A stretch of DNA of 64,000 bases, taken from a bacterium (GTDB lineage Bacteria > Krumholzibacteriota > Krumholzibacteriia > LZORAL124-64-63). A model generated the notes under the pieces. That model did not search any database. It was given only the letters and a program-made list of their open reading frames with translations, and was not told where the DNA came from. The translations under genes and the position numbers were made by a program. Position 1 is the stretch's first letter, and every line of letters begins with the position of its first letter. The DNA is taken from the NCBI GenBank assembly GCA_016703265.1, contig JADJCK010000009.1:226570-290569 (forward strand), read 5' to 3'. This document shows positions 42,946 to 46,126 of the stretch, in pieces.

Positions 42946-43371
42946 CTAGTTGTTGTGCGCGCCCTGCTCGATCCAGTCGTGGATCAGCAGCCGCTGCGCC
43001 GGGGGCAGGGCGTCGCCGCCGAACGGCATGCGCGCGCCCGTGGCCGGGTCGCCCTCCAGCTTCTGGTACAGCACCGACACGTGCGGATCGCCGGGCACCA
43101 CGCGCGCGCCCGTGTAACCGGACGAGGCCGCATTGACCAGCAGCGTGTAGCTCGTGGCTGCGCGCAGGTCCAGTCCGGCGCTGGCGCCGGCTCCATGGCA
43201 CCCGAGGCAGTTGGCGTCGAAGATCGGCTGGATGTCCGTCGCGAAGGAAACCGTGTGGGCATGGCCGTCGTCATCGGGAGCCGGCTCGAGGGTACCCACT
43301 CCATGGTCGGCGCAACCGACTGCTCCCAGCAGCAGGGCCAGCGCCGAAGCCTGGGCCAGGTGTCTCTTCAT
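42946..43371 (-). CDS. monoheme c-type cytochrome-like lipoprotein (PSCyt1-like CxxCH domain)
   Basis: Lipobox signal peptide (LLLGAVGCADHG). IQPIFDANCLGCHGAG heme-binding motif. Confidence 0.55.
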   Translation of the reverse strand: MKRHLAQASALALLLGAVGCADHGVGTLEPAPDDDGHAHTVSFATDIQPIFDANCLGCHGAGASAGLDLRAATSYTLLVNAASSGYTGARVVPGDPHVSVLYQKLEGDPATGARMPFGGDALPPAQRLLIHDWIEQGAHNN

Positions 43372-43967
43372 GATGTCCTCCGCAGGGCCAGGGCCACGCG
43401 CACCTTCTGCTCCTCGGCCAGCTTCAGCAGCAGCATCTGCGGCCGCGCGATGTCGTAGTCGGCCAGTTTCACCGGGAATTCCGCCGTGGCCGTCAGCTCG
43501 TCGGCCGTCGGGCGCTCAAGGACGATGGTGCAGACTACCGGCCGGCGGACTCCGTGCAGCTCGAGTTCGCCCACAAATTCGACACTGGCGGTTCCGCCGA
43601 CCGGTAGACTGGACGCGGGCGTCGCCTTGACGGCGCCGCCTCGCAGCCACGACCGCGGGAAGCGGTCGGTGTGAAGGTGATTCTCGCGCATGTGCTGGTT
43701 ACGCTTACCCAGGCCGGTATCGAACGAAGCCATCTCCACCGCCACCTCAAGCACGATGTCGCCCTCCAGCTTGTCCGGGTCGAACGTGCAGCCGCCGCTG
43801 ACCTGCTTCGTGCGGCCGGTGATCGTCTCGAGCGGCGCCTTCGAGACGAACTCGATGCGCGAGCCGTCACCGGGCACGATGTCCCAGCGGCCGGTGGCCG
43901 CCCCGGCCGGCGCCCGGCTTCCTGCCAGGCCCAGCAGGGAGACGACGATCAACAGCAGCCTGCGCAT
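43368..43967 (-). CDS. YceI-like periplasmic protein
   Basis: Signal peptide. RWDIVPGDGSRIEFVSKAPLETITGRTK YceI signature. 4-nt overlap with the downstream cytochrome gene. Confidence 0.7.
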   Translation of the reverse strand: MRRLLLIVVSLLGLAGSRAPAGAATGRWDIVPGDGSRIEFVSKAPLETITGRTKQVSGGCTFDPDKLEGDIVLEVAVEMASFDTGLGKRNQHMRENHLHTDRFPRSWLRGGAVKATPASSLPVGGTASVEFVGELELHGVRRPVVCTIVLERPTADELTATAEFPVKLADYDIARPQMLLLKLAEEQKVRVALALRRTS

Positions 43968-44034
43968 CTTGCCCGCCCTTCCCGGTGTGGCGCTCCCCCA
44001 CGGGCGCCCGACCGGCCGCTCAACACCAGACAGT

Positions 44035-45192
44035 TCAGTACAGGAAGTGCACCATCACTTCGCCGTCGTAGCGGTCGACATCGTTGACCGCGAAGCCTTC
44101 GTCCACGCGCCAGCGGTTCGCCATCACCTGCAGGCCCAGGCTGGGCCGGGCCAGCCAGGCCACGCCCGCGCCCAGCCGGTGCCGCGCCCCGTCGCGGTAG
44201 GCGCGATCGGGATCCTGGAAGCAGTAGACAAGGCGCGCCGCCAGGCCGCGCCTCATCTCGACCGTCAGCTCGTTGGTCAACAGCCGGCCCAGCCGGTCGT
44301 CGCCGCGTGTCTCGTCCATCTCTCCCAGCCAGGTCACAGGGCCGCCCGAGACATACCAGAAGGCGCCCGCCGCGCGGCTGCCACCGCCGGCGCCGCCGCG
44401 CTTCCAGATCGAGGCTCCCACGCCGGCGCGCACGGCTCCCAGTTCCTGCCGCAGCAGCGCGCGCGCCGCGTAGTTGCGGCCCAGTTCCGGTTCGCCGTCG
44501 AGCACCGACACGGTGGCCGACAGGCCGCCTGCAGCCACGCCGGCTTCCGCGCCCGAGCCCAGCAATCCCGAGGGATCGTCCACGCCATCGGCCGCGAACA
44601 GGTAGCGTCGCGAGAACAGCCGGTGATCGTCGAAGCGCCAGCCGTAGTCGGGTACGAAGCGCCCGGCCTTGAGGTACCCGTGCGGGATCACGCCGTGGGC
44701 CAGGCCGAACACCTCGCCGCCACCGCGCTGGCCCTGCTCCGCGTAGAGTTGCACATCGCCGGGCGCGGCCAGCGCCAGGTAGACATCGCCCTGCATCGAG
44801 AAGACCGTGCCCTCGCCACCCTCCTGCGTCCAGGCCAGGGTGCGCAGGTCGGCGCCCACGGTGATGTCGACCGGCAGCGCCGGGCGCGTCGTCTCGCCGT
44901 CCGCCGAGGTCGTGCTTTCATCGTCGGATGCCCGGCGTCCATGGGTCGCCGCCAGCTCTTCCGGCACCAGGAACTGCGAGGTGTAGGCGTTGCGGAGGCC
45001 GCCCCCGGTGGGATTGACGTGGCACAGGCGGCAGTCCTGCCCGTAGCGCGCGGTGTACCGGGGGAGGGCCATCGCACTGTCGGCCGCGGTCCAAAGCACC
45101 AACAGCACGACGACCACTCCCACCGATCTCCGCTGGGCTCCGCTGCCTGGGGTCGCCCGCCTGGGCGCCTGGTCGATCGCTCCGCAACGCAT
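44035..45192 (-). CDS. Cyc2-like fused monoheme cytochrome c - outer-membrane beta-barrel (candidate extracellular electron-transfer / Fe(II) oxidase-type protein)
   Basis: After a signal peptide, PRYTARYGQDCRLCHVNP fits the Cyc2 motif (PxFARQYxxxCxxCH) with a single CxxCH. It is followed by about 330 aa of beta-rich sequence ending VHFLY. Start position uncertain. The long plus-strand ORF is antisense. Confidence 0.5.
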   Translation of the reverse strand: MRCGAIDQAPRRATPGSGAQRRSVGVVVVLLVLWTAADSAMALPRYTARYGQDCRLCHVNPTGGGLRNAYTSQFLVPEELAATHGRRASDDESTTSADGETTRPALPVDITVGADLRTLAWTQEGGEGTVFSMQGDVYLALAAPGDVQLYAEQGQRGGGEVFGLAHGVIPHGYLKAGRFVPDYGWRFDDHRLFSRRYLFAADGVDDPSGLLGSGAEAGVAAGGLSATVSVLDGEPELGRNYAARALLRQELGAVRAGVGASIWKRGGAGGGSRAAGAFWYVSGGPVTWLGEMDETRGDDRLGRLLTNELTVEMRRGLAARLVYCFQDPDRAYRDGARHRLGAGVAWLARPSLGLQVMANRWRVDEGFAVNDVDRYDGEVMVHFLY

Positions 45193-45399
45193 CGGGCTCC
45201 CGTGGGCCGCCGGGTGCAGGCCCGGTCGGCGGATTGGAAAGTAGGCGATCCCGGAAAAGGGCGATCCCGTCGGTGCAACCGGCGGCAGGATGCGGGCGAG
45301 GCGCCCGCCGCCGGCCCGGCAGGTTGCCCGTCCCGTTGGCGGGACCGCCCTACCCGGCCTTCGACACCGCGAACGATACTCAAAAACAAAACCGCCATC

Positions 45400-45415
45400 T
45401 GTGACCTTGGTCACA
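45400..45415. promoter_or_regulatory. perfect CRP/FNR-type box TGTGA-N6-TCACA
   Basis: TGTGACCTTGGTCACA about 200 nt upstream of the Cyc2-like gene and 40 nt downstream of the Crp/Fnr regulator gene. Confidence 0.55.
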
Positions 45416-45454
45416 AATGGCGGTATTAATTTTTCTAATCGCTGGGAGGGCCGG

Positions 45455-46126
45455 CTAGCCCGCCACCATCGCCCGCAGCCCATCGGGGTTGGTCAGGGTG
45501 ATGCGGCCACGGCTCAGCAGAATCGCGCCCTGGTGCTCGAAATCCTTGAGCAGGCGGCTGATCGGCTCGCGCGCGCTGCCCAGTTCGGCGGCAATGCTCT
45601 CGTGCGTTACCTGGAGTTCACGGGTGCCGCCGCTGCCGAAGAAACCGTCGCACAGGTACTGCGCCAGCCGGATATCCAGTTTCTTGAAGGCGATCTCCTC
45701 CACCAGCGTCATCACGTCGACCATACCGGCGGTCATGATGCTGAACACATGCGTCCGCAGGCTGGGCTCGACGCCGATCCAGCCGCGGAACACGTCGGGC
45801 GGCACCACCAGCGCCACCACTTCCTCCTCCACGCGCGCGGTGGCCGGCGACGGCACGCCCGTCATCGCCCCCAGCAGGTTGAGCAGGCACAGTTCCCCGG
45901 CGCGCACCCAGTAGAGGGTGATCTCGCGGCCCGACTCGCTGCTCTTGAAGACACGCATGGTTCCTTCGCCGACCAGCCCCACGCCGGGCGCATGGTCGCC
46001 TTCGCACACGAAGTAGCTGCCGGGCTTCACGCGCACAAGCTGGCCCGCCTCGCGCAGGCGCTGCTGGAATTCAGGGCGTGCGTTCCGGTAGAACTCGAAT
46101 TTCTGGAGGATGCTCTCTCGGGTCAT
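45455..46126 (-). CDS. Crp/Fnr-family transcriptional regulator (cNMP-binding plus HTH)
   Basis: Beta-roll cNMP domain. C-terminal HTH ESIAAELGSAREPISRLLKDF. GGAGA ribosome-binding site. Confidence 0.85.
   Translation of the reverse strand: MTRESILQKFEFYRNARPEFQQRLREAGQLVRVKPGSYFVCEGDHAPGVGLVGEGTMRVFKSSESGREITLYWVRAGELCLLNLLGAMTGVPSPATARVEEEVVALVVPPDVFRGWIGVEPSLRTHVFSIMTAGMVDVMTLVEEIAFKKLDIRLAQYLCDGFFGSGGTRELQVTHESIAAELGSAREPISRLLKDFEHQGAILLSRGRITLTNPDGLRAMVAG

Follow-up and report, generated by a model that had tools for sequence, protein, structure and literature searches.

The locus described here lies in a stretch of 64,000 nucleotides (nt) from a bacterium of the phylum Krumholzibacteriota (GTDB lineage LZORAL124-64-63; assembly GCA_016703265.1, contig JADJCK010000009.1, positions 226,570 to 290,569 of the forward strand), referred to throughout as the window and numbered from its first letter. 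Four genes, for a Crp-type regulator, a putative outer-membrane fusion of a monoheme cytochrome and a porin (the heme-porin), a YceI-family protein and a small c-type cytochrome, are arranged head to tail on the minus strand at 42946-46126. Sequence comparison places the heme-porin in a large family that is related to, and distinct from, the iron oxidase Cyc2, and that keeps the YceI and cytochrome genes as its regular neighbours. The features of the locus, in the direction of transcription, are as follows (E, expectation value).

45455..46126, minus strand: Crp/Fnr-family regulator of 223 amino acids (aa); Pfam cNMP_binding E 1.9e-13, HTH_Crp_2 E 8.5e-15, Crp E 1.2e-6
45381..45424, minus strand: terminator-like hairpin, a 15-base-pair (bp) stem topped by the CRP-type box, with a 4-nt loop, then TTTGTTTTTG
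45400..45415, no strand assigned: CRP-type box TGTGACC-AA-GGTCACA (minus-strand reading), with 7-nt inverted arms
45373..45378, minus strand: putative -10-like hexamer TATCGT, 21 nt downstream of the CRP-type box
44035..45192, minus strand: candidate fused monoheme cytochrome-porin of 385 aa, C-terminal HFLY
45067-45192, minus strand: predicted signal peptide of the heme-porin, residues 1-42
45019-45033, minus strand: heme motif of the heme-porin, C54-R-L-C-H58, within ALPRYTARYGQDCRLCHVNPTGGGLR
44038-44865, minus strand: 16-strand barrel of the heme-porin in an AlphaFold2 model, residues 110-385
43368..43967, minus strand: YceI-family periplasmic protein of 199 aa, with a signal peptide that has no lipobox Cys; PF04264 E 8e-20
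42946..43371, minus strand: predicted monoheme c-type cytochrome lipoprotein of 141 aa
43195-43209, minus strand: heme motif of the cytochrome lipoprotein, C55-L-G-C-H59, with a candidate Met ligand in RMP

The porin stop codon is separated from the YceI start by 67 nt, the YceI stop codon and the cytochrome ATG overlap by 4 nt (ATGA), and a terminator scan found no terminator-like site within the porin-YceI-cytochrome trio; for these reasons the three genes are likely to be co-transcribed as one transcript. An earlier note on this DNA, made from its letters alone, had listed features of the locus, and each one that it listed was found where it had placed it. It had also described a 385-aa protein with one CxxCH immediately after a signal peptide and a beta-barrel-like body ending in aromatic residues, and both parts of that description agree with what is reported next.

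The heme-porin starts at an ATG at 45192 preceded by GGGAG, and its N-terminus reads MRCGAIDQAPRRATPGSGAQRRSVGVVVVLLVLWTAADSAMA up to the predicted cleavage site and LPRYTARYGQDCRLCHVNPTGGG beyond it. The signal peptide has a pair of arginines (RR) in its n-region, a hydrophobic stretch VGVVVVLLVLW and a probable cleavage site between AMA and L, placed from the sequence together with a near-invariant alanine at position -1 in homologues. The single CxxCH of the protein (C54-H58) lies 12 residues past this site and not inside the cleaved peptide. Near-identical homologues have been annotated at 357-360 aa, the window protein being 385 aa when read from the ATG at 45192. When the heme-porin was scanned against Pfam and NCBIfam, no family appeared even at E up to 1, the lack of a Pfam family being something that it shares with Cyc2; nor did a profile of its family match any sequence in the PDB, solved porins included, with E values up to 10 allowed. 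Because the PDB profile search was empty the fold was taken from a predicted model, in which AlphaFold2 (predicted local distance difference test score, pLDDT, 78.3) builds 16 strands and the top structural match is OprP; OprO and OprP are the templates reported for Cyc2 (PMC8406198). The modelled barrel and the position of the heme motif support the view that the window protein is a fused monoheme cytochrome-porin of the outer membrane, in which heme would be attached at the CxxCH.

Searching for homologues gave 135 proteins, every one of them named "hypothetical protein"; they come from Krumholzibacteria, Eisenbacteria and unclassified metagenome-assembled genomes (MAGs). When the search was repeated exhaustively with a profile, 2083 representative clusters reached E <= 1e-3 and 1035 reached E <= 1e-10, and its weak tail, to judge from an estimate based on bit scores, probably includes some canonical Cyc2. 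The heme-porin family amounts to roughly 1000 clusters at 50% identity, all labelled "hypothetical", from soil, sediment and wastewater metagenomes and from Krumholzibacteria- and Eisenbacteria-type MAGs. Down to about 34% identity the invariant residues of the N-terminal region include P44, R45, Y50, Q52, C54, L56, C57, H58, P61, G63-G65 and R67, and those of the barrel include M133, G184, W185, D189, H190, D327 and P328. The CxxCH and the motif around it are invariant in the family alignments, and the idea of a chance CxxCH in an ordinary porin was ruled out on the ground that motif and flanks alike persist to 34% identity.

The obvious point of comparison is Cyc2, the protein of Acidithiobacillus ferrooxidans and Mariprofundus ferrooxydans (Cyc2 PV-1) for which clusters 1-3 have been defined (McAllister 2020, Keffer 2021). 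In Keffer et al. 2021 (PMC8406198) it is characterised by a signal peptide, one CXXCH, the sequence AXPXFAR[Q/K][T/Y] before the heme motif, PXL after it and a 16-strand porin, with AXPXFAR[Q/K][T/Y] serving as the inclusion filter; the FeGenie filter for Cyc2 sets a minimum length of 365 aa. The window heme-porin has the signal peptide, the short segment with a single CXXCH and, in the model, the 16-strand OprO/OprP-like barrel. Where Cyc2 has AXPXFAR[Q/K][T/Y] it reads ALPRYTARY, which does not conform to the motif, and the sequence from its heme motif onwards, CHVNPTGGGLR, lacks the PXL feature.

A set of canonical Cyc2 (n=88) was assembled by a back-translated motif scan of a collection of species-representative genomes followed by extraction of open reading frames (ORFs). 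It takes in Mariprofundus, Zetaproteobacteria, Sideroxydans, Nitrospira defluvii, an Acidithiobacillus gene (locus L025; loci are cited here by such numbers) and one Krumholzibacteriia MAG (L050), and the Acidithiobacillus gene has a diheme c4 cytochrome gene after it, as expected for cyc2-cyc1. When 230 members of the heme-porin family were set against these 88 sequences, PxFAR[QK][TY] was present in none of the 230 and in 88/88 canonical Cyc2 (the latter by construction), PxL within 3-6 residues of the heme motif in 0/230 versus 82/88, and CxxCHxxPxGG in 206/230 versus 0/88. The family carries instead PR[YF]xAR[YT] and an invariant NPxGGGxR, together with barrel motifs of its own (MQGD and GW[RK]FDDH), and its median length is 371 aa compared with 450 aa, a difference of about 80 residues. 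What the two groups have in common ahead of the first Cys is a spacing, A(-12), P(-10), aromatic(-8) and [YT](-4), and the more distant heme-porin members read ALPRFAARTGxxCxxCH, nearer to the Cyc2 consensus. The earlier note had spoken of a close match to the Cyc2 signature, and this is right for the spacing and for roughly one in two of the key positions (A-x-P at -12/-10, the aromatic at -8 and Y at -4) and wrong as a literal statement, PRYTARY standing where PxFAR[QK][TY] is called for.

Evidence of a relationship came from alignment of profiles. Using hhalign, the 230 family members matched the 88 Cyc2 sequences over the whole protein at 98.9% with E 1.6e-17 and 314 collinear columns; the barrel alone gave 95.9% (E 5e-9) and the N-terminus alone 97.9%, whereas controls with a reversed or block-shuffled Cyc2 barrel reached at most 4.7%. 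These profile matches support a remote homology between the heme-porin and Cyc2 that takes in heme motif and barrel alike. The protein was not filed as Cyc2 because the two defining motifs examined both fail, and we conclude that the heme-porin family is a sister family within a Cyc2-like superfamily of fused cytochrome-porins and not a set of Cyc2 orthologues. It follows that one cannot assign it the Fe(II) oxidase activity of Cyc2 without more ado.

The neighbourhood of the heme-porin gene was followed through a sample of 80 metagenome loci retrieved with the family profile and 5 retrieved by exact look-ups, 79 of the loci being distinct; porin, YceI and small-cytochrome genes were placed by the envelope coordinates of hidden Markov model (HMM) matches, and 120 canonical Cyc2 loci served for comparison. 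A YceI gene lay within 150 nt of the end of the porin gene at 49 of the 52 distinct loci with at least 700 nt of downstream sequence, as against 1/120 canonical Cyc2 loci, and a small FoxE-like cytochrome domain was adjacent at 37 of the 39 loci for which both flanks were present, as against 0/120. The pairing of the porin with YceI and a monoheme lipoprotein, which had been proposed from the window by itself, is thus a conserved property of these operons. Two gene orders occur among the 37 cytochrome-bearing loci: porin-YceI-cytochrome, as in the window, at 19, and cytochrome-porin-YceI, with the cytochrome gene immediately upstream, at 18. The upstream protein at L004 is a lipoprotein with an immunoglobulin (Ig)-like domain and a C-terminal cytochrome domain. 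At the cytochrome-first loci L164, L172, L176, L177, L184, L198, L203 and L204 several of the partner cytochromes have CX3CH and not CX2CH, examples from such operons being CDQACH, CALGCH and CLLGCH.

More distant members of the superfamily that have no YceI neighbour adjoin other periplasmic electron carriers. In the region 3504-6020 of L206 a cupredoxin and a diheme c4 cytochrome accompany the distant heme-porin, in the region 2651-4257 of L208 a cupredoxin does so, and there is a 389-aa cytochrome c at L207 and a faint cytochrome c'-like match at L209. The common theme is thus that of a heme-porin with a soluble redox carrier at its side, in which the carrier varies by clade, and the arrangement at L206 and L208 recalls the rus operon of Acidithiobacillus, with cyc2, cyc1 and rusticyanin. 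A sigma-54 two-component pair lies upstream at L206.

The identification of the first partner as a YceI-like protein, made from the sequence in the earlier note, is secure, the match to PF04264 scoring 72.1 bits (cut-off 23.7) over profile positions 1-147 of 150. Direct matches to solved structures were weak and were to E. coli YceI (1y0g), Thermus TT1927b (1wub) and the ubiquinone-binding X158 domain of Cbp2D and Cbp2E (2x32/2x34). Members of the YceI family resemble lipocalins, and their ligands are polyisoprenoids or quinones, as is known for TT1927b and X158; X158 binds ubiquinone-8 and in Cbp2D of Cellvibrio is fused to two c-type cytochrome domains in a context of extracellular electron transfer (PMC8981238). 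The window locus resembles Cbp2D in having a YceI-type module alongside c-type cytochrome domains in an extracytoplasmic setting, but its YceI is a stand-alone protein encoded directly after an outer-membrane heme-porin, with no link to carbohydrate-binding modules or lytic polysaccharide monooxygenases (LPMOs).

The second partner has a lipobox-like sequence, LLLGAVGC, a heme motif IQPIFDANCLGCHG and a downstream RMP. Its Pfam matches are weak (Cytochrome_CBB3, PSCyt1 and PccH), and the description of it as a PSCyt1-like monoheme lipoprotein is loosely right: the CLGCH motif and the lipobox-like sequence are present, but the PSCyt1 score is 19.5 bits, below the gathering score of 22. A profile of the partner-cytochrome family found as its best solved relative FoxE of Rhodobacter ferrooxidans SW2, a diheme Fe(II) oxidoreductase of the periplasm, matching both of its heme domains (5mab, E 8.6e-10), and as its second PccH of Geobacter sulfurreducens (4rlr, E 1.6e-6). 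On these alignments the partner is a FoxE/PccH-like cytochrome, aligned over its full length to FoxE, including a C-terminal W-I-x-x-G-A, and to the N-terminal half of PccH. It differs from both in consisting of one heme domain of about 100 residues that would be lipid-anchored, and from FoxE in being encoded beside a heme-porin and a YceI protein and not in a foxEYZ operon.

The regulator upstream of the trio combines a cNMP_binding with an HTH_Crp_2 domain and lacks the N-terminal iron-sulfur Cys cluster of the FNR type. Its recognition helix, AREPISR, shows the R-E-x-x-x-R spacing of E. coli CRP. The gap of 262 nt between crp and the porin gene contains TGTGACCAAGGTCACA at 45400-45415, a CRP-type box that occurs once in the window against an expectation of 0.04. 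It had been called a perfect palindrome beside a Crp gene; its 7-nt arms are perfect and the regulator is indeed adjacent, but the 2-nt centre is not palindromic, and so the description does not hold for the full 16-mer. Both elements recur at homologous operons. Crp homologues flank 8 distinct heme-porin family loci and 0/120 canonical Cyc2 loci; at L003 the porin is 42% and the Crp 43% identical to those of the window and the crp gene lies downstream of the module. The core TGTGACC-N2-GGTCACA is found upstream of the operons at L127, L128, L129 and L003/L150, with one mismatch at L001 and L004, and the core is also found at L175, ahead of the cytochrome-first form of the operon; the box recurs in about 7 lineages. 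No shared palindrome was found upstream of the box-less loci L137, L141, L147 and L157, at which a Crp gene is present. Two further exact matches to TGTGA-N6-TCACA, L167 1555-1570 and L173 481-496, were discarded as the coding sequence of a CxxCH (TGT GAn nnn TGT CAC). This codon string encodes C-[DE]-x-C-H, and therefore heme motifs can mimic CRP boxes in genome scans. Matches to the CRP box are present in L184 and L192 as well, and are left without interpretation.

TAnnnT hexamers (TATCGT, TATCGA, TATCAT, TAGACT) stand 21-22 nt past the box in the window and at L128, L129, L003 and L001. This spacing would put the centre of the box near -41.5, as at a class II site, and the leader would be some 170 nt long. 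A sigma-70 consensus scan found no promoter in the crp-porin region, and an Rfam scan of the window found tRNA only, so that the predicted leader matches no known RNA element. The region is like the class II CRP promoters of E. coli (TGTGA-N6-TCACA at -41.5) in its perfect half-sites, its regulator with the R-E-x-x-x-R helix and its -10-like hexamer, put in this comparison at about 29-30 nt downstream of the box. It is unlike class II CRP/FNR promoters in that its -10 element is a weak one and its box is at the same time part of a terminator-like hairpin.

The hairpin raises the question of whether the palindrome is only the intrinsic terminator of crp and no regulator site. It begins 31 nt after the crp stop codon, its 15-bp stem is followed by the T-run TTTGTTTTTG, its RNA fold has an energy of -27.9 kcal/mol (z = -7.4, with 0/200 shuffles folding as well), and T-runs are rare in the 70% G+C DNA of the window. 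Such a terminator, however, would not account for the retention of the 16-nt core at L129 and L003/L150, which have no crp gene upstream of it (at L129 and L003 the extended stem and the T-run are absent), for boxes ahead of the cytochrome-first operons L004 and L175, for the fixed spacing of 21-22 nt to a -10-like hexamer, or for the number of boxes, exact TGTGA-N6-TCACA sites being expected by chance about 0.02 times over all upstream regions searched (our own estimate). We consider a role in termination alone doubtful, and favour a dual role in which the element would act both as crp terminator and as operator of the operon.

How the module might work can be pictured from these parts. The heme of the heme-porin would exchange electrons with a small soluble extracellular species, most likely Fe2+, and the periplasmic lipoprotein cytochrome would receive these electrons from it; YceI would either dock on the complex or carry an isoprenoid quinone linking the pathway to the membrane quinone pool; and the neighbouring CRP-type regulator would, in this lineage, control the operon through the TGTGACC-N2-GGTCACA box at its class II-like position. 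If the direction of electron flow and the substrate are left open, we judge that the three genes probably form an extracytoplasmic electron-transfer module, and there is good reason for confidence that the heme-porin, as a member of the Cyc2 superfamily, is a redox conduit of the outer membrane. It very probably works in a Cyc2-like way, and Fe(II) oxidation by it is plausible. Since the partner genes are specific to the heme-porin family, they suggest a different way of moving electrons across the envelope from that of Cyc2. The inward flow of electrons from Fe(II) is the likeliest single reading, given that electron uptake is the business of Cyc2, FoxE and PccH alike. It is proposed tentatively, at a little short of an even chance, and is not put higher because no oxidase or bc1 complex is linked to the module, the heme environment may differ from the one in Cyc2 and the hosts are described as putative heterotrophs. 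We would attach a low probability to a more specific role for YceI, as a soluble periplasmic quinone carrier that is docked to the porin-cytochrome pair and shuttles between the outer-membrane heme and the quinone pool of the inner membrane. Such a protein-chaperoned quinone wire across the periplasm has not, to our knowledge, been described for any outer-membrane electron conduit; were it real, the widespread YceI family would gain a role in physiology.

A number of observations weigh against this proposal. Direct comparisons with Cyc2 are weak: BLASTP against Sideroxydans Cyc2 aligns the N-terminal motif only (E 0.014), a profile of 30 sequences reaches 39.7% when set against the single Acidithiobacillus Cyc2, neither of these being counted as support for homology, and the window heme-porin scores 18 bits on an HMM of the 88 canonical Cyc2. 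The heme environment may differ from that of Cyc2, given that both defining motifs are absent. There is no terminal oxidase, bc1 complex or other respiratory gene in the 64-kilobase window, and no respiratory gene is conserved next to the module at the loci examined. The CRP-type box is absent from most heme-porin family loci and that of the window could be a terminator only. Finally, hosts of the Krumholzibacteria and Eisenbacteria type have been described as putative heterotrophs (PMC9769843).

The last point also speaks for an alternative in which electrons would flow the other way, from the quinone pool through YceI and the cytochrome to the heme-porin and on to an extracellular acceptor such as chelated Fe(III), humics, oxygen or reactive oxygen species (ROS). 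The direction of flow is not fixed by sequence alone, the YceI family binds polyisoprenoid quinones and X158 acts with cytochromes in an outward path to LPMOs (PMC8981238), and a reactor fed with Fe(III) enriched one Krumholzibacteria MAG (PMC7914226). On the other side, Cyc2, FoxE and PccH, to which the two redox proteins are closest among characterised proteins, act in electron uptake or Fe(II) oxidation. The outward conduits known to us use multiheme cytochromes. Keffer et al. argue that a monoheme Cyc2 suits dissolved Fe2+, and a single heme is regarded as fit for soluble species only (PMC8406198). An outward conduit is regarded as unlikely, and inward flow remains the likeliest single reading.

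A role outside respiration would be in envelope redox homeostasis or metal handling (detoxification of Fe2+ and ROS, or oxidation and reduction of iron for uptake), or in the transfer of isoprenoid lipid to the outer membrane by YceI with the heme acting as a sensor. In E. coli, yceI is paired with yceJ, a cytochrome b561 gene for which a link to the oxidation of superoxide has been made. Genes for methionine sulfoxide reductase and for ferritin or rubrerythrin are found near some of the loci, a SelR (MsrB) gene lies 5.5 kilobases away in the window, and no respiratory genes are linked to the module at any locus examined. These stress-related neighbours are nevertheless not conserved, and both the tight trio with its dedicated c-type cytochrome and the cupredoxin and c4 neighbours of distant members have the look of an electron-transfer chain, which leaves a non-respiratory function decidedly improbable and electron transfer the reading that is preferred. 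That the heme-porin is simply a Cyc2 orthologue, an Fe(II) oxidase as in Mariprofundus or Acidithiobacillus, is very improbable in spite of the shared architecture, the A-x-P and aromatic spacing, the significant profile-profile match and the FeGenie-based reports of Cyc2 in these phyla (PMC7914226, PMC9769843), when set against its missing motifs, its shorter length, an 18-bit score on the pan-Cyc2 HMM, a BLASTP alignment confined to the motif and partners that are essentially absent at the 120 canonical loci (Cyc1-type diheme c4 in the Acidithiobacillus locus, YceI and a FoxE-like monoheme lipoprotein here). The Cyc2-like identity put forward in the earlier note accordingly survives as remote homology that includes the barrel and not as membership of Cyc2, the defining motifs being found in 0/230.

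There is in addition a separate gene with the canonical motif in the same group of bacteria. At 2287-2337 of L050, the Candidatus Krumholzibacteriia MAG JBAZPL010000027.1, the canonical Cyc2 motif AIPAFARKYGFNCMMCHTAYPKLN occurs in a 440-aa protein. The earlier FeGenie reports of Cyc2 in the Krumholzibacteria phylum may refer to a gene of this type, and canonical Cyc2 and the YceI-linked family may coexist in one genome.

The earlier note had suggested that the module would be a new context for extracellular electron transfer. As regards the lineage this does not stand, since earlier studies reported FeGenie-called Cyc2 from MAGs of Krumholzibacteria and Eisenbacteria (PMC7914226, PMC9769843) and L050 is canonical; as regards the gene family it does, the YceI and FoxE-like partners being new. 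No paper was found in the literature that names YceI together with Cyc2, nor one that names the NPTGGG motif. The novelty is a large, motif-divergent sister family of Cyc2 with a conserved partner set of its own. Cyc2 is the main genetic marker by which iron oxidisers are called in genomes and metagenomes, and published pipelines filter on PxFAR[QK][TY] or use HMMs built from sequences that bear it; a motif filter of this kind would exclude the heme-porin family. If the family does move electrons across the outer membrane, surveys are missing a sizeable part of the potential for extracellular electron exchange in phyla that are supposed to be heterotrophic. The near-obligate pairing with YceI provides a concrete and testable functional context for that widespread family, and the FoxE-like partner ties together the Cyc2 and FoxE iron-oxidation systems, which have so far been treated as unrelated.

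The surroundings of the module can be described briefly. At the corresponding position in the window there is no counterpart of the protein of about 270-280 aa with a FlgD_ig domain that is encoded 3' of the three-gene module at the divergent loci L003 (8218-9027) and L001 (8208-9053). Converging on the module from the plus strand is an ORF at 41682-42929, with a 6-O-methylguanine DNA methyltransferase DNA-binding domain and an HhH-GPD glycosylase domain, whose stop codon is 16 nt from that of the cytochrome gene. Directly upstream of crp, at 46289-48250 on the minus strand, is a hybrid histidine kinase (CHASE8 periplasmic sensor, HAMP, HisKA, HATPase and receiver domains), which might feed into the regulation of the module. 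Beyond it, between the kinase and a glucose-1-phosphate adenylyltransferase-like gene, a 403-aa ORF at 48352-49563 on the minus strand has no Pfam match and a signal-like N-terminus.

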